Shown piece by piece: positions 8,184-26,484 of a DNA stretch of 64,000 nt. Within the stretch, counting starts at the first letter, position 1. Each line of letters begins with the position of its first letter. This stretch comes from Escherichia coli O127:H6 str. E2348/69. GTDB taxonomy: Bacteria; Pseudomonadota; Gammaproteobacteria; Enterobacterales; Enterobacteriaceae. A program made the translations under genes and the position numbers. Below the pieces are notes generated by a model. It was not told where the DNA came from and did not search any database. It worked only from the letters and a program-made list of their open reading frames with translations. The stretch lies in assembly GCF_000026545.1 (NCBI RefSeq), contig NC_011601.1. One strand, given 5' to 3'.

Positions 8184-10690
8184 TGCGGGATCCCCTCTGA
8201 GAATCTCTGGCGCTGTTGGGTAAGGTCGATGACGACAGGAGTTCCATCATCTTTCAGCAAATACCCAGTGCCGAGTTTCACCAGATACTGGCTATCTCCA
8301 TAGCTTTGCAGACCGTACTGGCCTGGCGGTGCTTTAATTCCTGCGCCAGTCACCTGAGTTTTCCATGCCTGATCAACTTGTTTATCAAATTGTTCGGCAG
8401 ACATCCCCCAAGGCAAAAGAACACTTCCCATGCCGTTATAATCGTGCACGCCACCAGTAGCTACGTTAACAGCCTGCTTCCATGTGTCACTGTCAACTTC
8501 ACCCGAAACCACACCCTTCTTCGCCATCACCCCAGCGTAATAGTCCTTTGCTATCTCATAGGCCATTGATGCACCCTGCGCGTCACCGGCAAACGCATCC
8601 TTCACCATGTCAGAAAACTCTAGTCGCAGATCGTTATCCTTCGGCATTGGTATGCCCTTAGCATCATCAGTTCCTTTACGAGCCGCGGCACCGGACAGGA
8701 TGGTTTGCGCTGCTGTTTCTGGTGATACAGAAACATCAGGGTTAAACCAGTTTTTCTCAGCTACCACTCCTCCTGGCTTATCCATCAGGATCCCAGCTAC
8801 TGCTGCTGATGGCGCATTGGTGCTTATCTGCTGAAGCGCTGACATATATACCTGACCGCCCCCGGTGCTCTGCCGAATGGTGTCGAGATATGCAGTCTGC
8901 TGAGAAACTGGTGCATCGCGGAAGAAAGCCCCGATCTGATTCGCCTCTTCTTTGGAAAAGAACGTCAGCGGCGTACCGTATGACTTAGCCAGATCTACAG
9001 CCTGAGAAGCCCGAAGGGAAATCGTCTGGCCGAAATTGTTCTGGTTGGTCATATCAATAGGCTTTGTTTGACCGGAAGAAAGTGAAAACTGAATTGGGTC
9101 TGCTTTACGTTGCGCAAGAACAGTACTGGCAGCAGAGACAACGGCGTCATAGGTTTGGGCGCGCGCTGCATATCCTTCGCCAGTTTCACCAGTATCTGGC
9201 TTCAGATTTTCTACTGCTGCCTGAATGCTGCTGGTCGGCATGTTGCGAAACGATCCTATGTACTGCCCTGCGATCTGCGTGTTGCGAAACTCGGTATAGC
9301 GTAGATTTCCCTCCCGCACGCCGTAGGCGGCGAGGAAGTCGTTCTGCGTAGGCGCGTTCGGGAAATCAACTCCGCGCATGTATGCCGCGCTGGCATCGCG
9401 TACGCGGCTGTCGATATTGGTGCGGTATTCAGCCTGCTGCTGTTTACGGATCTGGTCAGCCTGGCGAAGGAATGTCGCCTGGGCCTCCGGAGATGCTGCA
9501 TCGAATGCCGCATTGCCGGTATAGCGCTTTGTGCTGGTTGGAAGTTGAGAGAGGCCAATTGCCGCGCTAACACCGGTAGCAAGTTGCTGATCGCTGTACG
9601 GCTGACTGCCGTTCTCATGTTGGATAATGGAGGCACACAAAGCCTTTAGCGTATCAGGGTTTGAGGCATCAAGCGGCTGGTCAGGCGTCACACCGAGTTG
9701 AGCACATACTGCCTGAATATAGGCGTCAGTGTTGTTATTGTCAGACGGCGGTGCCCAGCGATTAATGATGTCGTTTACAGTATCAATACCCTGTCTCTGG
9801 TATGACAGCAGGTTGCGTCCAAGCGCCCGAATGCCGTGTTCTGGCGTTTCGAATTTTGCAAATCGACCATCATCACCGGTCTGGCCCACCCACGGATTGG
9901 TTTTGCTGTATTCGAGGTTTCCTGGGTTGTTGTTGCGAATGCCACGGGCGCTATCACCAGAACCACCTTCTGATACTGCACGGCGGGAACCAGTAACTGT
10001 ATCGCTTAACTCGCCATTGCTCTGGATGAACTCGATCGAATTATTTGCCGACCACTGAGAAAGGGAAGCATCGGCGACCTTCTCTTTGAACTCAATCTTT
10101 TTGGCCTGAATCTGTTCAGAACTCCAGCCATGAGCGGAGCCATAATCTTCGATCTGCTGGAAAGTCTGCTGGTTGTAGAGAACATAATTGGCATTATCAC
10201 CATAGGCGGCAGCAGCCAGTTTTCCGTTGTTCGCCAGAGTCGCCTGGAACTGACCTTCTTCATAGGCATTGAGTTGGCTTATCTCATGCCTGCCAGCCTG
10301 GGTGGTGAACTGAATGCGCTGCTGCTGAGCCTGCTGTATAAATCCAGCCCGGGCACCTTCCGGCAATGTCATCGCGATCTGCTCTGCCTGAGCATCGAAT
10401 TGCTGGGTATAAACCTGCCCCTTGCCAAGAGCGTTCTTACCCTGCATGTTTAGAAGCCCGGTATCCGGGTTGGTTAGCAGATCACTGGAAATCTGGCTGA
10501 GTTGCAATGATGCATCCTGAGCCTGAGCAACATCCGCGCGCTGTTTTGCCTGAGCAAAAACATCAAGTGCTTTACCACCAACCTGCGTCAGGGCATCTCC
10601 GATATTTGGCTGATCGAATGCCTGAAAACCAGGAGACTGAAACCCTCTGCTTTCGACCTGACGACCGGTGACTGTTGGTACTGTTGGCAT
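8180..10690 (-). CDS. Internal virion / ejection protein (836 aa)
   Basis: Large Gln/Ala-rich protein in the ejection-protein position; overlaps downstream gene by 4 nt. Confidence 0.45.
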   Translation of the reverse strand: MPTVPTVTGRQVESRGFQSPGFQAFDQPNIGDALTQVGGKALDVFAQAKQRADVAQAQDASLQLSQISSDLLTNPDTGLLNMQGKNALGKGQVYTQQFDAQAEQIAMTLPEGARAGFIQQAQQQRIQFTTQAGRHEISQLNAYEEGQFQATLANNGKLAAAAYGDNANYVLYNQQTFQQIEDYGSAHGWSSEQIQAKKIEFKEKVADASLSQWSANNSIEFIQSNGELSDTVTGSRRAVSEGGSGDSARGIRNNNPGNLEYSKTNPWVGQTGDDGRFAKFETPEHGIRALGRNLLSYQRQGIDTVNDIINRWAPPSDNNNTDAYIQAVCAQLGVTPDQPLDASNPDTLKALCASIIQHENGSQPYSDQQLATGVSAAIGLSQLPTSTKRYTGNAAFDAASPEAQATFLRQADQIRKQQQAEYRTNIDSRVRDASAAYMRGVDFPNAPTQNDFLAAYGVREGNLRYTEFRNTQIAGQYIGSFRNMPTSSIQAAVENLKPDTGETGEGYAARAQTYDAVVSAASTVLAQRKADPIQFSLSSGQTKPIDMTNQNNFGQTISLRASQAVDLAKSYGTPLTFFSKEEANQIGAFFRDAPVSQQTAYLDTIRQSTGGGQVYMSALQQISTNAPSAAVAGILMDKPGGVVAEKNWFNPDVSVSPETAAQTILSGAAARKGTDDAKGIPMPKDNDLRLEFSDMVKDAFAGDAQGASMAYEIAKDYYAGVMAKKGVVSGEVDSDTWKQAVNVATGGVHDYNGMGSVLLPWGMSAEQFDKQVDQAWKTQVTGAGIKAPPGQYGLQSYGDSQYLVKLGTGYLLKDDGTPVVIDLTQQRQRFSEGIPQ

Positions 10691-18616: not shown

Positions 18617-20283
18617 TGCTGCGGTGCTCCTGCTGCATTAGCGATAGCAGTTAATGCGCTCGGGTCGCTGGTCTGCGTTTCGCTGAGAGTCTTGGCCCCC
18701 TGCGCTGCCGCCTGACCCATAGCCATTGCCTGTGCCGCCTGAGCCTGTTTAGCTCGCTCTTCACGAATACCCTGTACCTGCTCCTGCGGAACGATGACGG
18801 TTGGCGATACGCCTGACATTTCAGAGAACGCGTCGATAGCCTGATCCACATCAAGCTTGTCGAGCGCTTCAGGTTTGAACTGCGCCAGTTGCCCGATAAA
18901 TCCAACTGTCTGCGACAGGCTGGTGAGGCCGATAGATTTCTGAGCCTGAGCCATCACAGAGATGTACTCGATACGCAGCGGCATACCCTGAAGAACGTCA
19001 GGAGGTTCGGGCAACATGTTCTTGCGGGCCATGATTGAGAACACGCGATCGATAAGCGGGTTAAGCGCTTCGTCATTCAGGCGCTCAAGCACCGGGCCAA
19101 GCATCAGCAGTTTCTCTTCCTTCATCTCGATCACCGCTTCCACCGGCATAGATCGGGTGTTGATTTTTTGCAGCATCATGAAGAGGTCAACGAAGTAGGC
19201 GCTGTTGATGGTCTGCCTAGTGTCCTGAATGTCAGCCAGCAGGTCGGCGGTATTCGGGTTTACCAGGTATGCAGGTTTGAAACCATCCTGACCGGTCAAC
19301 ACGTCGAGATATGTCACATCGCCAGGCAACAGGGAAACACGCTGATTCTTGAGCGATGTTGGGGCAACCATCGGCGGGTTAGTGGCTTTATCGATCAGCT
19401 GAGCTTTGCGCTTCTGCTCAACCTGAAGTGCTTTAACCTGACCGAGTGCCAGCATACCAGGGCAAGATGAGGCGTAAACGTCTTCGCCATTCACTTCCCA
19501 GCGCGGCGCCAGAATAGGGAATTCATCAAATCCGGATTCACGCAGCAGCTTGTCGGAGTCGCCGCCAGACTCGAAATAGACAGAGCGGTAAGGCTTGTTC
19601 TTGCTGTCCATCTTCCCGCTGTCGCGGTTGACGTTAGGTGTGATGCAGTGGTTAACCTTCACCCACGTTTCATACGTGCCGTTTTCCCACATGCCTTTTA
19701 CGGATGTGCTGACGTTATCCAGACCGAATTCCTGCACCATCTGGCGCACGGTCATGGAGAACTGGCGAATGCAGGTGTCTACGCTACCGCGCGGACTGTT
19801 AGCCAGGTAGTAACTGCCAATAGGGAAAGGCATTGTGCGGATCACGTCCTGGTCATCTTCCAGAACAGCCATAGCGCCGGTGCCGAAAGTACCCAGACTT
19901 GCGTACATAACAGGCAGTGACTGATACAAATTCGATTTGTTGAACACTTCGTTCATGCGGCGCTGCACGACTTCCAGCCAGATTTTCACCGGGCCATAGT
20001 CCATCATGTCAGGGTCAGGCGTTGCCAGTTTGAACCACGGTCGTGCCGGACTGGTGATGCCTGACATCATGCCGCTGGACAGAATTCGCTGAGCCATTGA
20101 GCCAGTGGGATCAACAATCTTGGTGTTACGGCGATCATCACGGTTTACATCAGATGTCAGAAAGCGGGAGCCACGCGGATTGATGAAGTCACTAAGATCA
20201 CGCCAATGCGATTCGAACGATGTGCGCTCATTCTTCAGCTGTGCGAGCTGCTTCAGCAGGCGCTCTTTTTCGGTTTCCGCCAT
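18613..20283 (-). CDS. Portal protein (556 aa)
   Basis: Size and position upstream of scaffold/capsid; acidic C-terminal tail. Confidence 0.65.
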   Translation of the reverse strand: MAETEKERLLKQLAQLKNERTSFESHWRDLSDFINPRGSRFLTSDVNRDDRRNTKIVDPTGSMAQRILSSGMMSGITSPARPWFKLATPDPDMMDYGPVKIWLEVVQRRMNEVFNKSNLYQSLPVMYASLGTFGTGAMAVLEDDQDVIRTMPFPIGSYYLANSPRGSVDTCIRQFSMTVRQMVQEFGLDNVSTSVKGMWENGTYETWVKVNHCITPNVNRDSGKMDSKNKPYRSVYFESGGDSDKLLRESGFDEFPILAPRWEVNGEDVYASSCPGMLALGQVKALQVEQKRKAQLIDKATNPPMVAPTSLKNQRVSLLPGDVTYLDVLTGQDGFKPAYLVNPNTADLLADIQDTRQTINSAYFVDLFMMLQKINTRSMPVEAVIEMKEEKLLMLGPVLERLNDEALNPLIDRVFSIMARKNMLPEPPDVLQGMPLRIEYISVMAQAQKSIGLTSLSQTVGFIGQLAQFKPEALDKLDVDQAIDAFSEMSGVSPTVIVPQEQVQGIREERAKQAQAAQAMAMGQAAAQGAKTLSETQTSDPSALTAIANAAGAPQQ

Positions 20284-20504: not shown

Positions 20505-20593
20505 AGCAATAGCTCCGTACGCAATTAAATTATTACCAATTTAACCACATATGATTTATTTAGCGTAGGATATTGACACTTATAACATCAGAT

Positions 20594-20610
20594 ATTACCT
20601 TTTAGGTAAT
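20594..20610. promoter_or_regulatory. Operator-like palindrome ATTACC-N5-GGTAAT
   Basis: ATTACCttttaGGTAAT, upstream of portal operon. Confidence 0.45.
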
Positions 20611-21056
20611 TGGTTCGTGTGTTGAATTGATGAATTGCGGAGGTGGTTATGTAACCGCTTGTGCAGTAGCCCGGAGTACCGCAGCAATAAATTGGGCTTA
20701 AAAGTAAAGGCGGTGGATAAGCGGAGCATCATCTCCGCACATAACTAAAAGCGCGCTTCAGTGAATGACCTTTGAGCCTGGTCGTTAAATCCAAACGGTG
20801 GAGTGCGCTTTCAGGTGTGTAGCAGTACGGCATATGGCACATGTGCCGCAGCGGTCCGGATGGGTTCCCTTGATGCTACTTCCCCAGCCGGGTAGCCGGA
20901 ATGTGCAAGCCAGTGTTAGGTAAGCACGGACAGACGATTCACCATCGTGGCGATACGGTGTGACACCTCGGAAGAGACGAGGATGCAACGATGATAGCAT
21001 TGGGGTGACCGGTTAATCCCATGACGATAACCGATACAGGCGCAGTGCTCTCTTCG

Positions 21057-21169
21057 TTGTGGTTAGCTCAGATAGGTTAGAGCTCCATCCATGCTTGCCA
21101 TTGCTGCATGGGCGGGGAATGGGTTCCGAAAGGATCGCCGCGCAGGTTCGAATCCTGCACCACAACCCA
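21057..21169 (+). tRNA. tRNA-like element, non-canonical (possible pseudo-tRNA or structured RNA)
   Basis: 7-nt acceptor strands TTGTGGT/ACCACAA pair; canonical D-arm TAGCTCAGATAGGTTAGAGC; T-arm GCAGG-TTCGAAT-CCTGC; discriminator plus encoded CCA; but ~58 nt lie between D- and T-arms (normal ~22), including a 7-bp stem with an 11-nt loop. Confidence 0.3.
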
Positions 21170-21375
21170 ATCACGCCTTAGGACCGTGATGAAGCGCCCA
21201 TAAGAACAATGCTGTGTAGCCTTTGGCGGTGGCAGTTTCCCTTGATGCTGACCACCGTCACTTTTACACCAGAACGCCATTGCGATGACGTTGCGCTGTA
21301 AACCCGTAAGCCATGGAAGGCACCCTTGCTTCCATTTCGCCCGGTTCGTCCGGGCATTTTTTTAAGGTGATTAGA

Positions 21376-21807
21376 ATGAGTAAAGACCTGTTCGACATGA
21401 AGCGCCTTCCGGTTGACCGGGTTGCTGCGAGAGTTGTTGGTAAGGGCGTTGATTGGACGCCAAATAAAGTTATTCAAACTGGTGACAGCGATCTTCCGTT
21501 GCCAGTATTTCCTGCATATAACATTAAAAACCCGCAACAACGACGCGAAGTGCAAGCAATGATCGGAAGAAAGAGCGGGAGATTGACAATAATTGGTCTC
21601 GCGGTCACACAGGGAGCAAAAAATAAAGGGGCTCGCTATGTTGCTCGTTGTGTTTGCGGGATTTATACGTATCGCAGAGCAAAAAATTTCAAGAATAATT
21701 CTGATGATTTTGACGGATGCGAGCGCTGCAGAGAACTGTTGTTTCTCAAAAGGGAAGAAGTTAAACGCAGAACGGGAAAATGGGTTGACTGGAAAGAGCT
21801 GATGTAA
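21376..21807 (+). CDS. Hypothetical Cys-containing protein (143 aa), opposite-strand moron between terminase and portal genes
   Basis: ATG at 21376 preceded by AAGGTGA; CVCG...CERC zinc-ribbon-like motif; own terminator; opposite strand to all surrounding late genes. Confidence 0.45.
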   Translation: MSKDLFDMKRLPVDRVAARVVGKGVDWTPNKVIQTGDSDLPLPVFPAYNIKNPQQRREVQAMIGRKSGRLTIIGLAVTQGAKNKGARYVARCVCGIYTYRRAKNFKNNSDDFDGCERCRELLFLKREEVKRRTGKWVDWKELM

Positions 21808-21827
21808 GACTGTGACACGTCACAACT

Positions 21828-21852
21828 AGCCCGCCGATGCGCGGGCTTTTTC
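21828..21852 (+). terminator. Rho-independent terminator
   Basis: AGCCCGC-cgat-GCGGGCT hairpin followed by TTTTT. Confidence 0.5.
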
Positions 21853-23332
21853 ATGCATAGGGATCGTACTCTGTGAGAGCCTTGCCCTGTTGGCTCTGTT
21901 GCTGCCCATAGTTAAACTGTTTTTTGGTGACCGGCGCGGCATATGTCAGCACGTAGGCGTCGGCATCGTTCGGGGATCTGCCAAGCAACTCTTTGACTTC
22001 TTCCTTGTCCTGCAAAATCTTCCTGCTGTCCTTCAGCCTGACCTTGTACTCCGGCGCACTCAGCTCATCGGCAAGGTTCTGGCTATCCAGTTGCGCCCCA
22101 AGCTTCAGTGCGTCGCGGGCTGATTTGTACATCTCCCCGCGCTTATTGCCCATCTCGGGATCCGCGGTACCGCTTCCGAACTGAATCAGCGTCCAGTTTC
22201 GCCCCCAGTTATCGCCAACTGATTTAAGCCCGGTCCCGTACCCGTAATCGATAAACACAGCATCGGCCTGGTACTGGTCCTCGAAGTCGGCAATTATTTT
22301 GGCAAACAATACGTCGTCAGTGGTGCGTTGCCACTCCCCGAGTTTCTTACAGTGCAGTCCCTGCCGAAGATAGATAACCGCCGGGTCTTTACCCTGGTGA
22401 GACGGGTCGACGCCAAGAACTACAGCAGCGTGCTGAACCTGTGCCGGAGTAATAACCCTGCCAACAGCTGGCTGAGTCAGGCCAGACGGAATGAACTGGT
22501 TTTCAGACGCATCAGGGAAGATCCCGCGCACGCGAACCTTCACGAAGTCGCTGTCTTCGCCGTAGTCGTCCACCCACTTTTGCAGTTGCTGCTTGTTGGT
22601 GCCTTCCACGGTGCGGCTGTCAATCTGCGCGCACTTCCAGCGGTGTTTGTACTTGCGGAAACATTCACGGAAACGCCCGGTGTTACGCGTCGGGTTACCG
22701 AACGCCACCCAGATGATTTCGGTGTCTTCGTCCGTCAGCGCCCCTTCAGCTACCTCCCACACCAGATCGGCAATGTTGGATGCTTCGTCGAATACCACGA
22801 TGATGCGCTTGCGCTCGTTGTGCAGCCCTGCGAACGCCTCGGTGTTGTGTTCAGACCATGGGATTGCGTCAGCGCGCCAGCGTTTATCGTGACCGGGATC
22901 GTTGCTGTACATCGCTGTGGCGGTGCAGGTGAACCACTCTTTCGTAATAGCCAGGTTCGACCATTTGATGATTTCCGGCCATGTCTTGGTACGCAACTGA
23001 TTGTCGGTGTTGGCGGTCACCACCACCTTGCAGTCCTCGCAGGTGGACATGCCCCAGTTAATCAGCATCGAGATGAAAGCAGATTTGCCGATACCATGGC
23101 CGGATGCGCGCGCCAGCATCAAAGGCTGGTGACGCGTCGCTGGGTTCTGGAGGTGATCGCGTATCTCGCGGAAGGCGTCAGCCTGCCACTTTCTGGGACC
23201 TGTGGCGTGCGCCAGCTCTGTGCCATCCTCTCCCCACGGAAACGCGTACAGCGCATAGCCCAGCGGGTCATACGTGAACGAGGCGATATCCTCAACGAGC
23301 TGCTCTTCCGGCGACATGGCTTCGGCTGTCAT
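21851..23332 (-). CDS. terL: Terminase large subunit
   Basis: Walker A-like ARASGHGIGKS near N-terminus; size 493 aa; directly downstream of and overlapping the small-subunit gene. Confidence 0.8.
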   Translation of the reverse strand: MTAEAMSPEEQLVEDIASFTYDPLGYALYAFPWGEDGTELAHATGPRKWQADAFREIRDHLQNPATRHQPLMLARASGHGIGKSAFISMLINWGMSTCEDCKVVVTANTDNQLRTKTWPEIIKWSNLAITKEWFTCTATAMYSNDPGHDKRWRADAIPWSEHNTEAFAGLHNERKRIIVVFDEASNIADLVWEVAEGALTDEDTEIIWVAFGNPTRNTGRFRECFRKYKHRWKCAQIDSRTVEGTNKQQLQKWVDDYGEDSDFVKVRVRGIFPDASENQFIPSGLTQPAVGRVITPAQVQHAAVVLGVDPSHQGKDPAVIYLRQGLHCKKLGEWQRTTDDVLFAKIIADFEDQYQADAVFIDYGYGTGLKSVGDNWGRNWTLIQFGSGTADPEMGNKRGEMYKSARDALKLGAQLDSQNLADELSAPEYKVRLKDSRKILQDKEEVKELLGRSPNDADAYVLTYAAPVTKKQFNYGQQQSQQGKALTEYDPYA

Positions 23333-23922
23333 TCTTCACCACCAGCCCGCTCTTTCACGCGACGGCGGGCCTTAGCCATGCGGTCGGCAATGGTGACGGT
23401 GCCGGAAACTTCCAGGCGCTCTTTGAACGCATTGACGTCGACGTGCTTACCAATCAGCTCGAGGTTCTTCACCTTGTCAGGCCATTTGATTTTCTTGAGG
23501 ATGGTCTCGATTGATGTCTCATCCATGTTCATGATGGTAGAGGACAGGTCGAAACCACTCAGTGTGGTGCGCCATATCTTCGGCCACTCGCGGATAGGCT
23601 TCAGGGTGCCATCATCGTTCAGGATGTCGATCACATCCATCTGGTCGATTTCCACCAGGCGAAGTAGCACGTAATCAGCACTGACGCGCAAACGCTTGTT
23701 GCGTTCCTCCATCAGCTCGGCGATCCGTTTCTGGATGCGCTCATCACGCATCATGACACTGGCTTTAACCGCTGCCGTATTAGGCGAGAACCCTGCGTTA
23801 ATCGCCGCCTGCGTCTGATTCTCAGGGCATTTGGTATATTCCTGCGCATAAGCCTCCTGCATCGCTGTTAGGGGCTTGTACTGAGTTGATTTTCGTTTTG
23901 GTGCTTTTGGTTCTGCGGGCAT
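23329..23922 (-). CDS. terS: Terminase small subunit (197 aa from ATG at 23922)
   Basis: Basic N-terminus MPAEPKAPKRKS; ATGA overlap with terL; track ORF extends 25 codons upstream through an operator palindrome, so the internal ATG with GGTGG RBS is preferred. Confidence 0.5.
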   Translation of the reverse strand: MPAEPKAPKRKSTQYKPLTAMQEAYAQEYTKCPENQTQAAINAGFSPNTAAVKASVMMRDERIQKRIAELMEERNKRLRVSADYVLLRLVEIDQMDVIDILNDDGTLKPIREWPKIWRTTLSGFDLSSTIMNMDETSIETILKKIKWPDKVKNLELIGKHVDVNAFKERLEVSGTVTIADRMAKARRRVKERAGGEE

Positions 23923-23951
23923 TGTTACCACCGAAGTAATAATTACCGTTT

Positions 23952-23968
23952 TGGTAATAGTAACACGC
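23952..23968. promoter_or_regulatory. Operator-like palindrome ATTACC-N5-GGTAAT
   Basis: ATTACCgttttGGTAAT, 30 nt upstream of terS start. Confidence 0.45.
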
Positions 23969-24025
23969 AAAACAAAGCCGCCATAGTCGGCGGCCATTGC
24001 AATTTATTGTCGATATCGTGACATG

Positions 24026-24364
24026 TCACACTGATAATTTAGTTTCATGCCAGCCACGAGTTACCCAACATGCCGAATCACCATCGCACGGACACGACTT
24101 AACTGGTAATACATCGCCGCATTTTACGCAGCGGTTAGCACTGATTGACTTGATACGAACACGAACGCGGGCATTATCCTGACGGATAAGCAACGCGATG
24201 TACTCGCTCATATCATACGGCGCACGACCAGGGCGACGGGCGGCGCAGTTACGCGCCAGCATTTCCATTTCCTGCTCGTCGAGTTGCAATTCCATCTTGC
24301 GGTTACCGGCTTCAGCCAGACGGGCACGCTGCGCGGCTTTGCGTTCTGCTGTGGATTTAGCCAC
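24026..24364 (-). CDS. Hypothetical Cys-rich protein (112 aa)
   Basis: CVKCG...CPCDGDSAC motif; last gene before the terminase operon. Confidence 0.4.
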   Translation of the reverse strand: MAKSTAERKAAQRARLAEAGNRKMELQLDEQEMEMLARNCAARRPGRAPYDMSEYIALLIRQDNARVRVRIKSISANRCVKCGDVLPVKSCPCDGDSACWVTRGWHETKLSV

Positions 24365-24478
24365 GGATAGCGCTCCATGCCAGATTAATTAATGATTCCC
24401 AGGCGATGTAAACCCTGATTCCTGCAGCCACGCCAAACCCGATTATCATGGAGTAAAGCAGAGCGTCGCACTTGGACA

Positions 24479-24901
24479 TCACTTCACCTCCTGCTGTGGT
24501 GCTGCTGCTAAATGCTCGACACCTTTAGCCCAAATAGCTTTGATGGTCGTCCATGTGACAGGAACGGTGATTTCAATTCTTCCGCTGCCGTCGCAGGTTT
24601 CGCAATCATCATCACCAAAACACTCTGGGCAGTTTATAAATTTCGTTTCTGAAAACTCACCGGACAACACACCCTTTGCGCCGTTCTCAGCGGTTAGCTT
24701 CTTCGGCACTAGTACGTAACCATCCGGAGATACCGGAGAGTTGCCAGCCTGAAGCATGGCTGCGCGGAGTTGTTGTAGTTCGGCCAGCGCTAGCATTACA
24801 TCATCAATGACAGGCAACTCCATTTCATACAATTCAAGAGAATCCCTAGCCACACGGATAAGTACGCTCAGACGCTCGTCTGTTAGGTTGTTATTGGTCA
24901 T
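24479..24901 (-). CDS. Hypothetical zinc-finger protein (140 aa)
   Basis: CPECFGDDDCETCDGSGRIE resembles a CxxCxGxG zinc finger. Confidence 0.4.
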   Translation of the reverse strand: MTNNNLTDERLSVLIRVARDSLELYEMELPVIDDVMLALAELQQLRAAMLQAGNSPVSPDGYVLVPKKLTAENGAKGVLSGEFSETKFINCPECFGDDDCETCDGSGRIEITVPVTWTTIKAIWAKGVEHLAAAPQQEVK

Positions 24902-25194
24902 TTTTCATCTCCTTTAAGCATGGCGGCGCGGCAGTCACATTCGATGAGTATCGGCTCTCCCCATGGCTGAACGCCGCCACTATCAGCCATTCCGGTGTCG
25001 TTACATTTAGGACAAGGTACTGGCTCCGCACTAAACGATGCAATCACTCCATCAATCACCTTCACAGCATCAGCCATTGCGTAGCCGAGATTGCCTCCGT
25101 CACTTTGTGCTGCTGCTTTGCTGAGTATTTCGCTTATCTGGTGCAGGCGATCGAGTGATACAGGACCGTTCGCCGGGTGGTTGTTAGTTGTCAT
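24898..25194 (-). CDS. Hypothetical Cys-containing protein (98 aa)
   Basis: CPKCNDTG...CDC motif; 4-nt overlap with downstream gene. Confidence 0.4.
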   Translation of the reverse strand: MTTNNHPANGPVSLDRLHQISEILSKAAAQSDGGNLGYAMADAVKVIDGVIASFSAEPVPCPKCNDTGMADSGGVQPWGEPILIECDCRAAMLKGDEK

Positions 25195-25204
25195 GGGTTA
25201 GTCC

Positions 25205-25438
25205 TCAGTTGTAACCAATCGGATTAACTGCAACCAGAACGCCGTCTGCGAACAGGTCTTTAATAATGTGCTCACACGGCTCGCCTGTTTCGTACTCTTC
25301 AACCAGGTACGTGTCGCCATCTTCATTGAGATAAACAGGAAAGATGGAACCATTGATAAAGTAGGTGCCGTTGTTATCAAGAATCTTTGCTTCTGCAATT
25401 TGTGTTTTCATTGTTAGTCCTCCCACTCTGTATCCCAT
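25205..25438 (-). CDS. Hypothetical protein (77 aa)
   Basis: ORF in early operon. Confidence 0.35.
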   Translation of the reverse strand: MGYRVGGLTMKTQIAEAKILDNNGTYFINGSIFPVYLNEDGDTYLVEEYETGEPCEHIIKDLFADGVLVAVNPIGYN

Positions 25439-25665
25439 TCAACCCAAGCGCCTTCACCATCAGCCTCGATAACACCCTGATTGCCACACTGCGGACACTT
25501 AACCAGGTCACCGCCGTAAAGGTATGTCCCTGCCAATGAGCGACTGATAACTTCAATCCCCTTGCTGCACTGGCAGTGTTCGCACGAATTAAGCCAGTCA
25601 ACGCGATATAACACTGGCTCCCACAACATGGTTTTGCTCTCACTTTGGAACAGCAATCTGCTCAT
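25414..25665 (-). CDS. Hypothetical zinc-ribbon protein (83 aa)
   Basis: CEHCQC...CPQCGNQG four-Cys pattern. Confidence 0.4.
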   Translation of the reverse strand: MSRLLFQSESKTMLWEPVLYRVDWLNSCEHCQCSKGIEVISRSLAGTYLYGGDLVKCPQCGNQGVIEADGEGAWVEWDTEWED

Positions 25666-25964
25666 ATCTCCCCCTTCACGCCAATGCCAGCGGCGCTTTC
25701 TAACAAGTCGTCAGCGGCCTGAATATCAGCGCCATCCAGCGATGCGCCATCAGCCGCAGCACGGAAACAGGTTTTGACAAATTCCTTCAGCCCCGCATTC
25801 TCCGCAGCCAGAGCATTACTACGAGCAAGTTGCACATCCAACTGCGTTGCCAGATCGCTAATCAGTTGTGCCACGTCTCGCACATCGACGGCGCCGCATG
25901 ATGCCTTCAGCTCTGCGGACTGATCATGTCCGCGCTTTACCAGATCACTCACTTTGCATTCCAT
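25662..25964 (-). CDS. Hypothetical protein (100 aa)
   Basis: ORF, 4-nt overlap with downstream gene. Confidence 0.4.
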   Translation of the reverse strand: MECKVSDLVKRGHDQSAELKASCGAVDVRDVAQLISDLATQLDVQLARSNALAAENAGLKEFVKTCFRAAADGASLDGADIQAADDLLESAAGIGVKGEI

Positions 25965-26025
25965 CTTTACCCCCGCTTACCCGTATAAGTTATTGATTAC
26001 GTTGATATCCAAAAGGATCATCGTT

Positions 26026-26367
26026 TCAGAACGTTTCGCAGTTCCAGCCACCACCTTTGCTTTTCGGTATTGGCTTTAGCGCTCTAAACGTGAATGGGTA
26101 CATGTCTGCGGCTACCTTGATTTTCACCCTGGCGTCATCAGTCCAGAACCCTTTCACCTCGTGCAATTCCATCTCTCCGGTGGTTAGCATCACCGCGAAG
26201 TCCGGCGTGTAGAACGTGTTATCAGCCAGCCTCAGCTTGATGCCCTCAAATTTGTACCAGGCTACGACAGTGCCGGTTATGCGCTTTAGGTGTGCCGCAT
26301 AAGCCTCTTCCGTCTTGTTCATCTGGCCTGTCTTGAGCCTTCCGAGCGCCTGCAACTGCCTTTTCAT
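26026..26367 (-). CDS. Phage protein, DUF1064-like (113 aa)
   Basis: Size and position right after replication genes; family assignment from memory. Confidence 0.35.
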   Translation of the reverse strand: MKRQLQALGRLKTGQMNKTEEAYAAHLKRITGTVVAWYKFEGIKLRLADNTFYTPDFAVMLTTGEMELHEVKGFWTDDARVKIKVAADMYPFTFRALKPIPKSKGGGWNCETF

Positions 26368-26431
26368 GATTTACCTCTCAGGTAATTTAAAACCACAAAC
26401 GAGTTAATTTCAATAGCAATGCGCATATTTT

Positions 26432-26448
26432 ATTACCTTTTTGGTAAT
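26432..26448. promoter_or_regulatory. Operator-like palindrome ATTACC-N5-GGTAAT
   Basis: ATTACCtttttGGTAAT between P-like gene and downstream early genes. Confidence 0.45.
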
Positions 26449-26484
26449 TCACCAGATGTAAAAAAATGCGCTACTGCGCCGGTA

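Follow-up and report, generated by a model that had tools for sequence, protein, structure and literature searches.

A distal accessory operon in an epsilon15/phiV10-like prophage of Escherichia coli E2348/69 and a candidate late regulator encoded by its last gene

The small genes at positions 24026-26367 of the 64,000-nt stretch of DNA analyzed here (the window) very probably form the distal, Ea/nin-like accessory operon of a temperate podovirus of the epsilon15/phiV10 type, whose lysis cassette is complete and is located just to the left of the window. The sole conserved gene of this run is its last one, 24026-24364, encoding a 112-aa protein of the gp49 family. Judged from sequence, this gene is the best candidate for a late regulator of the prophage, and it is accompanied by a recurring palindrome, GTGAC-NN-GTCAC.

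The prophage is located between yfgI and guaA in EPEC E2348/69 (O127:H6) and is epsilon15/phiV10-like (Uetakevirus); three E2348/69 chromosomes are 100% identical to the query region. Both synteny and nucleotide similarity tie it to TL-2011b, ZX5, epsilon15, phiV10 and SPN1S. Its content is that of a Uetakevirus genome, with terS, terL, portal, capsid, T7-like internal proteins, a tailspike, lysis genes after the tailspike and an integrase beside attP. The gene order matches that of the Uetakevirus members epsilon15, phiV10, TL-2011b, SPN1S/SPC32H and vB_EcoP_ZX5 from the integrase through to the lysis cassette. In those phages the early-right operon likewise closes with Ea-like genes and a gp49/gp55 'transcriptional regulator', behind which come a terminator and then terS, and the lysis genes are likewise found 3' of the tailspike and O-antigen modification gene. 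The late region of this phage type thus runs terS, terL, portal, virion genes, tailspike, antisense O-antigen gene, holins, GH19 endolysin, Rz/Rz1, attP. Across the whole window, including the ORF-poor gap between terL and portal and the 'pseudogenic tRNA-Gly' of the NCBI annotation, ARAGORN and Rfam detected no tRNA, and the sole Rfam match was the host sroE.

The preliminary description had expected Q and the lysis genes in this stretch, 3' of the P-like gene and ahead of terS, as in lambdoid phages, and had implied that the phage is devoid of a canonical lysis cassette. A complete cassette is present in the same prophage, past the left end of the window:

1,847-3,641 nt left of window position 1, late strand: lysis cassette according to NCBI annotation and Pfam (L001 8574-10368; NZ_LT827011.1 2771573-2773367)

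Its products match Phage_holin_8 (9e-11), Phage_holin_3_7 (1.3e-29), Glyco_hydro_19 (1.3e-8) and DUF2514 (Rz; 6.9e-43), all above the Pfam gathering cut-offs, and the lipoprotein Rz1 (lipobox LAGC) is embedded within Rz. Taken over the whole prophage, holin, endolysin and Rz/Rz1 genes are therefore adjacent, in the order annotated for epsilon15 and phiV10, where they likewise follow the genes for tailspike and O-antigen acyltransferase. The profile search that had been suggested gave two different answers: nothing within the small ORFs, as already surmised (scans of all eight ORFs at 23997-26367 with Pfam, PHROGs and NCBIfam returned zero holin, endolysin or spanin families, so that no canonical cassette is hidden there), and a full cassette elsewhere in the prophage. 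No holin or endolysin was found inside the 64-kb window itself.

The apparent absence of lysis genes arose because the window ends about 1.8 kb too early and because the lambda gene order was assumed, an order that is inapplicable to the epsilon15/phiV10 type. The run does share its position, between P and the packaging genes, with the nin/Q/S-R-Rz region of lambda, and it also resembles that region in having a nuclease for recombination along with numerous small genes, some of them with zinc ribbons. Unlike lambda, the prophage has neither a Q homologue nor lysis genes in this region; its late operon opens with terS and carries the lysis genes at the far end. A lambda-type Q-S-R-Rz block is missing here because this phage type places its lysis genes after the tailspike/O-antigen gene. 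The original observation is of little consequence in itself; it illustrates that a lambda template is unsuited to a podovirus prophage and that an absence can be a window-edge effect.

What the preliminary description saw as a run of small, partly Cys-rich early genes between the P-like gene and terS is indeed there, and all of the named ORFs exist on the minus strand:

26026-26367, minus strand: 113-aa DUF1064/PD-(D/E)XK-type nuclease (phrog_190 'Holliday junction resolvase' 1.3e-30; Pfam DUF1064 1.5e-4, below cut-off)
25662-25964, minus strand: 100-aa ORF, N-terminal 80 residues similar to the Ea22/ead-like N-terminus (phrog_492 1.3e-20 and phrog_250 1.6e-11, both partial)
25414-25665, minus strand: 83-aa zinc-ribbon ORF (CxxCxC ... 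CxxC; phrog_4446 4.7e-22)
25205-25438, minus strand: 77-aa ORF (68 aa according to NCBI), not Cys-rich (phrog_8930 1.8e-43)
24898-25194, minus strand: 98-aa chimeric ORF, residues 1-59 similar to a hypothetical protein of Salmonella phage 66FD
24479-24901, minus strand: 140-aa chimeric ORF, residues 53-140 similar to the Ea22/EaA C-terminal zinc ribbon (CxxC-x5-CxxCxGxG; phrog_60 2.6e-20)
24357-24482, minus strand: 41-aa moderately hydrophobic peptide (phrog_5525 at 3e-28; maximum Kyte-Doolittle average over 17 residues 1.8)
24026-24364, minus strand: 112-aa gp49-family protein, last gene of the operon, homologue of epsilon15 gp49, phiV10 gp55, TL-2011b gp20 and N15 gp46

The junctions overlap by 4-25 nt in five of seven cases, which indicates a single operon. 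It comes after the O- and P-like replication genes, with an intergenic control region of its own in front. All eight ORFs match PHROG families (E 1e-9 to 1e-49), and 26026-26367 is named a PDDEXK family nuclease in one RefSeq copy; epsilon15 has a RuvC-type resolvase in the slot held here by the DUF1064 nuclease. The relatives of the 83-aa ORF found with tblastn, in ZX5, phiv142-3 and Klebsiella/Acinetobacter phages, are solely 'hypothetical'. Residues 60-91 of the 98-aa ORF constitute a widespread mini zinc ribbon (CPKC...CDC), and the tblastn matches of the 140-aa ORF are annotated as Ea22 or EaA, its N-terminal 52 residues being an orphan. Three of the ORFs are represented at NCBI by pseudogene fragments (24479-24766, 25015-25194 and 25781-25964). 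By its sequence the operon is a mosaic of the DUF1064 nuclease, Ea22/EaA-derived fragments, three orphan zinc-ribbon ORFs and the 41-aa peptide. The small ORFs between the nuclease and the regulator, partly chimeric or fragmentary, are peculiar to the E2348/69 prophage and set it apart from other Uetakevirus members; epsilon15 carries Eae, Ead/Ea22, gp46, DUF551 and gp48 in the same slot. Only two gene pairs are conserved across relatives, terS with the regulator and P with the DUF1064 nuclease. As a whole, the operon is an ordinary accessory set of an epsilon15/phiV10-type prophage.

Paired Cys knuckles were found in four ORFs, in line with the zinc-ribbon- or zinc-finger-like patterns first noted: C28/31/33 and C57/60 in the 83-aa ORF, C61/64 and C86/88 in the 98-aa ORF, C91/94 and C100/103 in the 140-aa ORF, and C79/82, C91/93 and C99 in the 112-aa ORF. 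Among 100,000 shuffles per protein the same knuckle count was reached in 3.0, 0.5, 0.2 and 4.8%, respectively, so that the pattern is not due to chance. Within the family of the 112-aa protein, residues C79 and C82 do not vary, and at least 90% of 57 diverse homologues retain C99. The four Cys-rich ORFs have no match to Pfam Ogr_Delta (CxxC-x22-CxxxxC) at E<=0.1 and differ from Ogr/Delta in their Cys spacings; likewise, no ORF of the region matches Phage_antiter_Q and related Pfam families of lambda Q-type antiterminators at E<=0.1, and PHROGs and NCBIfam scans of the small ORFs brought up no Q or Ogr family either. The suggestion that the late regulator may be among the Cys-rich proteins is credible for 24026-24364 and finds no support for the other three, which are mosaic orphan modules. 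These are poorly conserved among relatives and hence unlikely to be core regulators; they are presumably dispensable accessory genes.

The operon is bordered by control elements on both sides:

26368-26484, minus strand: control region in the intergenic space 5' of the small-ORF operon, with a weak hairpin and T-run 3' of the P gene, two operator motifs and a promoter-like site
26432-26448 (exact) and 26370-26386 (one mismatch, overlapping the RBS): operator motifs of the prophage repressor, ATTACC-N5-GGTAAT
26413-26384, minus strand: promoter-like TTGAAA-18-TAAATT
23966-23995, minus strand: intrinsic terminator between the regulator gene and terS, a GGCCGCC...GGCGGC hairpin followed by UUUGUUUUG
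23942-23958: operator motif ATTACC-N5-GGTAAT just 5' of the terS RBS, a site that epsilon15 labels 'repressor; lysogeny'
23329-23921, minus strand: terS with corrected start MPAEPKAPKRK (ATG at 23921), the start of epsilon15 terS

The equivalent of the upstream control region is annotated as a terminator in phiV10 and as a repressor site in epsilon15, and the counterpart of 23966-23995 is an annotated rho-independent terminator in both phages. The operator motif has 10 matches, against 0.14 expected, all within the prophage and including those at 26370/26432, 23942, 20594 and 3348; in Uetakevirus, too, it is found in front of terS, of the portal operon and of the tailspike. For terS, an ORF start at 23997 was rejected as an over-extension, given that epsilon15 terS begins with MPAEPKAPKRK at the equivalent of ATG 23921, and the corrected start leaves a regulatory gap of 104 nt (23922-24025).

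The 112-aa protein has a predicted layout of a basic helix, a ribbon-helix-helix (RHH) with the beta-alpha-alpha fold of Arc/MetJ/CopG, and a 4-Cys knuckle. The linked palindrome suggests that it may bind DNA sequence-specifically as a dimer via paired beta-strands. Its family is labeled 'transcriptional regulator' in RefSeq and PHROGs, which is itself a prediction. Compared with RHH regulators such as Arc, CopG, MetJ, NikR and MazE/ParD/TacA, it adds the N-terminal basic helix and the C-terminal zinc knuckle, and what looks like its cognate site is placed 3' in the gene instead of in the promoter; unlike the antitoxins MazE/ParD/TacA, it has no toxin partner. Among solved structures its best sequence matches are the DksA/TraR C4 zinc-finger proteins (F-plasmid TraR, E. 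coli YbiI): residues 48-109 are colinear with TraR 5-65, a stretch that takes in the CxxCG..(I/L)P motif, the DksA/TraR finger itself being CxxC-x17-CxxC. Foldseek against PDB and BFVD gave nothing informative, and a literature search on epsilon15 gp49, N15 gp46, MatP-like phage proteins and the palindrome sequence found nothing relevant.

Exact copies of GTGAC-NN-GTCAC occur at four positions of the window:

24018-24029: site 1, GTGACATGTCAC, containing the stop codon of the 112-aa gene
21812-21823: site 2, GTGACACGTCAC, beside a GC hairpin (21828-21847), flanked by the stop codons of terL and of antisense ORF 21313-21807
3732-3743, minus strand: site 3, GTGACATGTCAC, 2 nt before the terminator GGCCGC-AATA-GCGGCC with U-run (3729-3704) and directly after a 46-aa ORF
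2795-2806: fourth copy, GTGACGGGTCAC, inside the tailspike coding sequence

About 0.06 copies would be expected in the window (an estimate, 64,000/4^10), and the eight matches obtained when one mismatch is allowed were reached in none of 100 shuffles. Three of the four copies mark operon junctions, with a stop codon on one side and an intrinsic terminator on the other; at site 2 the plus-strand order is stop, palindrome, hairpin, U-run. The fourth copy is missing at the same place in epsilon15 and may therefore be due to chance. Equivalents of site 2 are found at 2142 in epsilon15 and 2262 in phiV10, and about 56 of 80 IMG/VR loci have one at a distance of 2.0-3.0 kb downstream from the regulator; those of site 3 are at 19517 in epsilon15 and 19493 in phiV10, both abutting an annotated terminator. 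Those 80 loci hold 139 exact copies (0.6 expected), 69 of them at the regulator stop codon and about 62 at 2-5 kb downstream, with none in the 4 kb upstream. The stop codon also falls inside the palindrome in epsilon15 relatives, in myovirus ZF40 and in phage N15; in the latter two the linkage of gene and palindrome is kept, with two extra copies each. The palindrome is even retained where an SOS-box/umuD-like insert replaces the downstream DNA, and natural variants are few (GTGACATGTTAC in phiV10 and L034, GTGATACGTCAC in TL-2011b). In more distant homologues (39-45% identity; L086, L089, L090), the 3' end of the gene lacks a recurring palindrome. In ZF40, two of three sites are inside annotated genes and no terminator is evident beside the one site inspected, so the link with terminators may not be general.

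The half-sites are identical to those of matS, the E. coli site to which the RHH protein MatP binds, with the 13-bp consensus GTGAC[AG]N[TC]GTCAC (PMC3603311, PMC3116907). The phage site differs in being 12 bp long, with a spacing 1 bp shorter, and in being phage-borne with about three sites per genome. MatP consists of an N-terminal four-helix bundle (PF06303) and an RHH/coiled-coil part (PF17414); the 112-aa protein starts at the basic helix without such a bundle, and has its 4-Cys knuckle where MatP has a C-terminal coiled coil. Across 57 gp49-family members Pfam MatP has no match even at E<=10, and BLASTP revealed no MatP homology of the 112-aa protein. As a search for MatP homologues yielded near-identical E. 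coli sequences only, no diverse MatP profile was available; hhalign against a single MatP sequence gave a probability of 0.2% (E 0.29), and a directed HMM comparison was colinear at about 4 bits. Given these weak or null comparisons, 'MatP-like' is used here as a description and not as family membership, which was rejected on domains, Pfam, hhalign and the 12-bp rather than 13-bp site.

We tentatively propose, as one possibility that we hold with low confidence, that the gp49/N15-gp46 family and GTGAC-NN-GTCAC form a conserved, mobile protein-site module of epsilon15-like podoviruses, N15-like telomere phages and ZF40-like myoviruses. A MatP-like RHH/zinc-knuckle protein would here bind about three matS-like sites per genome and, in the epsilon15 group, would govern or bridge the terminator-bearing junctions between early and late units. 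For the prophage itself, the main reading is that the 112-aa protein presumably binds, as an RHH dimer, the palindrome overlapping its own stop codon and recurring at the ends of terL and the virion operon. Each intergenic palindrome is placed directly upstream of an intrinsic terminator, and in our working model the protein, as a delayed-early product, would control there the passage of RNA polymerase between transcription units, by read-through or insulation, and so contribute to the early-to-late transition. Late units each carry a repressor operator, and simple derepression could suffice without a dedicated late activator.

The palindromes might instead not be sites of the 112-aa protein at all, acting either as RNA hairpins ahead of the terminators (in 3'-end formation or stability) or as sites of the host proteins MatP or SlmA (matS GTGAC-RNY-GTCAC), which we regard as unlikely. 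A hairpin of 4-5 bp is predicted directly 5' of each terminator hairpin, and the variants GTGACATGTTAC and GTGATACGTCAC would retain G-U pairing on the terminator-bearing strand, yet this hairpin is very weak and the two central nucleotides vary, as would be expected of a spacer within a protein-binding site. The half-sites are those of matS, but the spacing is 1 bp shorter, and some copies in ZF40 and N15 are inside genes, away from annotated terminators. In three unrelated virion types the site remains tightly linked to a gene of the gp49 family, which favors a cognate pair of protein and site.

Rather improbable is a functional equivalent of lambda Q, in which the 112-aa protein would bind the palindrome over a promoter-like GTGACA-17-TAAATT (24029-24001), RNA polymerase would then resist terminators, and terS and the late region would be switched on. 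The last early gene is directly 5' of the promoter-like site, the terminator and terS, which is the order of Q, PR' and tR'; further copies of the site are found at later terminators; and no Q homologue was detected among the ORFs scanned or is annotated in the E2348/69 prophage, epsilon15 or phiV10. In this arrangement the terminator lies 6 nt downstream. However, the promoter-like match is weak (9/12) and equally frequent in shuffled sequence, no -10-like hexamer at the right spacing was seen at sites 2 and 3, and the transcript would start within the terminator hairpin. Moreover, the RHH fold is unlike that of any Q, and N15 and ZF40 combine the gp49-family gene and its site with a real, Q-type antiterminator (Q in N15-like loci), so that the family is not simply a substitute for Q.

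It had also been suggested that two hydrophobic peptides are the only membrane candidates. Both ORFs exist, the 41-aa peptide listed above and a second one:

3751-3891, minus strand: 46-aa peptide with two hydrophobic segments, phiV10p21 homologue, last gene of the virion/ejection-protein operon

Neither has a Pfam holin match or adjoins an endolysin gene, and their use as a stand-in for lysis genes finds no support now that the cassette has been located and the 46-aa peptide recognized as a phiV10p21 homologue. That the phage lacks a canonical cassette and draws its lysis or holin function from these peptides or from a small ORF at 23997-26367 is hardly credible and, as far as sequence allows, already refuted: the ORFs of the region and the window are free of lysis-family matches and include two small hydrophobic ones, but a complete holin/holin/GH19/Rz-Rz1 set occupies a position in the same prophage that is conserved in epsilon15 and phiV10, the 46-aa peptide ends the virion operon, and the 41-aa peptide is only weakly hydrophobic.

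In summary, the palindrome together with a conserved, uncharacterized gene provides a testable candidate for the coordination of several late units in epsilon15-type phages, which lack Q. The gp49 family and its palindrome represent a predicted site-specific DNA-binding module that has spread over three unrelated virion types. If the reading as a protein-site module is true, it would constitute a mechanism of late control unlike Q, Ogr/Delta or Mor/C.

The small-ORF run, eight minus-strand ORFs (24026-26367) between the P-like gene and terS, belongs to a prophage that sits between yfgI and guaA (NCBI annotation of NZ_LT827011.1; position in that record minus 2,775,213 equals the window position). 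At 100% identity, window 23300-27300 matches three chromosomes of the enteropathogenic strain E2348/69, and the nearest phage relatives are the Uetakevirus podoviruses TL-2011b, vB_EcoP_ZX5, epsilon15, phiV10 and SPN1S/SPC32H. Leftwards from the cI-like repressor, the minus strand carries a cro-like gene, a 66-aa gene, DnaT/O-like and P-like genes and the small-ORF run, followed by terS, terL, an antisense gene, portal, capsid, T7-like internal proteins and a 46-aa ORF, and finally an antisense gp19-like gene, the tailspike (555-3284) and an antisense acyltransferase gene cut by the window start. The features referred to below are:

35086-36339, prophage integrase (NCBI annotation)
33163-33462, plus strand, PerC-family transcriptional regulator gene (NCBI annotation; early-left operon of the prophage)
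28826-29422, plus strand, cI-like repressor gene
24026-24364, minus strand, 112-aa gene, the candidate regulator
21313-21807, antisense 164-aa ORF in the terL-portal gap (phrog_18493, weak HNH endonuclease similarity)
3441-3701, plus strand, 86-aa ORF near-identical to epsilon15 gp19
3400-3421, LexA-box-like sequence CACTGTATAAAACATACAGTAG, just upstream of the 86-aa ORF
3348, 20594, 23942, 26370, 26432, 28739, 28756, 29480, 29542 and 29618, copies of the operator motif ATTACC-N5-GGTAAT
24018, 21812, 3732 and 2795, exact copies of the palindrome GTGAC-NN-GTCAC
60024-60115, minus strand, host sRNA sroE (Rfam, 116.6 bits), in the chromosomal part and unrelated to the prophage

The PerC-family gene is also present in epsilon15 and phiV10. 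PerC/Pch proteins are activators of the LEE virulence island in EPEC and EHEC, and the prophage copy could bear on virulence regulation. The 86-aa ORF separates the virion operon from the tailspike and is antisense to the late genes; in view of the work on SPC32H, it is probably the SOS-controlled antirepressor of the Uetakevirus group. The low-GC segment at 1-4000 (37-42% vs about 52%) holds the C-terminal part of the tailspike and an O-antigen acyltransferase gene (Acyl_transf_3; 3' end at 40-525), and is a foreign module for serotype conversion. About 750 nt of the 1.3-kb terL-portal gap (20550-21850) are free of convincing ORFs; in this part, NCBI marks a 113-nt 'pseudogenic tRNA-Gly' (21057-21169), and neither ARAGORN nor Rfam gave a match in the gap.

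All small ORFs listed in the preliminary description are present, and its Cys patterns hold: four ORFs contain paired Cys knuckles whose count is reached in only 3.0, 0.5, 0.2 and 4.8% of 100,000 shuffles of the respective protein. Each ORF of the run has a PHROG family match, and most neighbours overlap by 4-25 nt and thus form one operon. Homology comparison shows the run as a mosaic. According to NCBI, three ORFs are internal fragments from longer families, which fits the partial matches to PHROGs and by tblastn: all that the 140-aa ORF retains of Ea22/EaA proteins is their C-terminal zinc-ribbon domain, the 98-aa ORF is fused from two unrelated pieces, and the 100-aa ORF is Ea22-like at its N-terminus alone. 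Only P with DUF1064, and the regulator with terS, are conserved among relatives. Because relatives carry other Ea-type genes between DUF1064 and the regulator, we regard the three orphan zinc-ribbon ORFs as probably accessory rather than as core regulators. The proposal that the late regulator is among the Cys-rich proteins is thus unlikely for these three, while the conserved 112-aa gene stays a candidate.

Scans of the small ORFs against Pfam, PHROGs and NCBIfam gave no match to lysis families, as had been claimed, nor to the Q or Ogr families. The window itself indeed lacks endolysin and holin genes; the absence this implied for the prophage does not hold, since a complete lysis cassette of the same prophage lies a little outside the window on the left. 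Four late-strand genes (8574-10368 of the extended prophage locus, L001), 1,847-3,641 nt to the left of the first window position and past the tailspike and acyltransferase, match Phage_holin_8, Phage_holin_3_7, Glyco_hydro_19 and DUF2514, all above the Pfam gathering cut-offs. Nested in the DUF2514 gene is an Rz1-type lipoprotein (MNVKRS...LALAGCSNSS), by eye ~90% identical to epsilon15 Rz1. This arrangement is shared by epsilon15 and phiV10, where the genes run tailspike, O-antigen gene(s), membrane protein, holin, endolysin, Rz/Rz1, attP and integrase. Both hydrophobic peptides suggested as membrane candidates fall away: the 46-aa ORF is a phiV10p21 homologue ending the virion operon, and the 41-aa ORF shows no more than weak hydrophobicity.

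Ten copies of the operator motif lie in the window, where 0.14 would be expected, and all are in the prophage; the same sites are annotated as repressor-binding in the epsilon15 record. Five flank the repressor gene, and the rest precede the small-ORF operon, terS (23942), the portal operon (20594) and the tailspike (3348), so that operators stand before every lytic transcription unit, beyond the immunity region. Two of them lie in the 117-nt gap between P and the first small ORF, together with a weak hairpin plus T-run and a promoter-like site. The terS start was corrected: NCBI and the preliminary description place it 76-82 nt too far upstream (23922-24003), a reading that crosses an intrinsic terminator and an operator. 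A start at 23997 was rejected in favour of the ATG at 23921, as in epsilon15, which uncovers a 104-nt intergenic region. Because of this operator distribution, the lytic genome is split into several units, each bearing an operator, whereas lambda has a single Q-dependent late operon. The motif positions suggest that the late units are directly repressed by the prophage repressor.

The 112-aa protein is homologous to epsilon15 gp49, phiV10 gp55 and TL-2011b gp20 (phrog_536, 1e-49). None of its 716 close homologues is named or carries a Pfam domain, and our literature search found no treatment of epsilon15 gp49, N15 gp46 or the palindrome. An exhaustive HMMER search yielded 147 cluster representatives; aligning 57 of them shows C79 and C82 to be invariant and R8, R13, E54, L59, P87, G95 and C99 nearly so. 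A confident AlphaFold2 model (pLDDT 91) predicts an RHH fold, with helix 5-19, a strand-like segment, helices 30-42 and 52-75, a Cys knuckle and helix 100-107.

This gene's stop codon sits within GTGACATGTCAC, and gene and palindrome are statistically linked. Across 80 IMG/VR relatives (621 kb), the palindrome occurs 139 times against 0.6 expected: 69 copies at the regulator stop codon and about 62 located 2-5 kb downstream, most near the terL 3' end, with none in the 4-kb stretch of early genes upstream. Its centre varies (AT, AG, CT, GG and others). Many relatives (e.g., L006, L043 and L045, at about 4337-4460 per locus) have a moron between the regulator gene and terS, made up of a umuD-like gene (MGFPSP...) behind a strong promoter that contains a perfect LexA box; even with the downstream DNA exchanged in this way, the palindrome at the regulator stop is kept. 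Epsilon15 has three exact copies and phiV10 two, plus one divided by the record ends, and these occupy the same junctions. The linkage recurs in two unrelated virion types with exactly three copies each: Pectobacterium myovirus ZF40 (gp22 stop, 5125 and 7622; locus coordinates 5125, 7622 and 14944) and telomere phage N15, whose gene 46 stop lies within GTGACTGGTCAC and whose other copies are at 28550 and 33237 of the record (all three at 4551, 9238 and 15270 of our N15 locus). One N15 copy lies about 115 nt upstream of an annotated rho-independent terminator preceding genes 32-30 (transcriptional repressor, gp31 and antirepressor Ant) and one lies within repA; likewise, an N15-like contig has one inside a large replication gene. 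More distant homologues (39-45% identity) lack the palindrome.

GTGAC and GTCAC also form the arms of matS (GTGAC[AG]N[TC]GTCAC), to which the RHH protein MatP binds (PMC3603311, PMC3116907); matS has 13 bp, and the phage site is 1 bp shorter. The 13-bp matS was found in none of 500 surveyed Escherichia and Salmonella prophages (PMC3603311), a pattern that misses the 12-bp variant. The 112-aa family profile follows MatP 71-140 colinearly through a basic helix, a strand and two helices, but scores only about 4 bits. Membership of the MatP family was rejected because hhalign and Pfam give no match and the N-terminal domain and coiled coil of MatP are absent; the protein is thus described as MatP-like in layout and putative target.

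The three intergenic window copies share one layout, i.e. stop codon, palindrome, GC-rich hairpin and U-run, which at 21812 is on the plus strand. We consider it fairly probable that the 112-aa protein binds the palindrome; the rival readings are an RNA-level hairpin or a site for a host protein. A Q-like promoter-proximal antiterminator has weak promoter evidence, and since N15 and ZF40 encode a Q as well as this family, the protein does not simply stand in for Q. More doubtfully, the bound MatP-like protein might alter RNA polymerase passage over the terminator-bearing junctions and in this way would help to time late expression. The small-ORF run without lysis genes is ordinary and explained, and the gp49-family protein with its palindrome is the sole lead worth pursuing.
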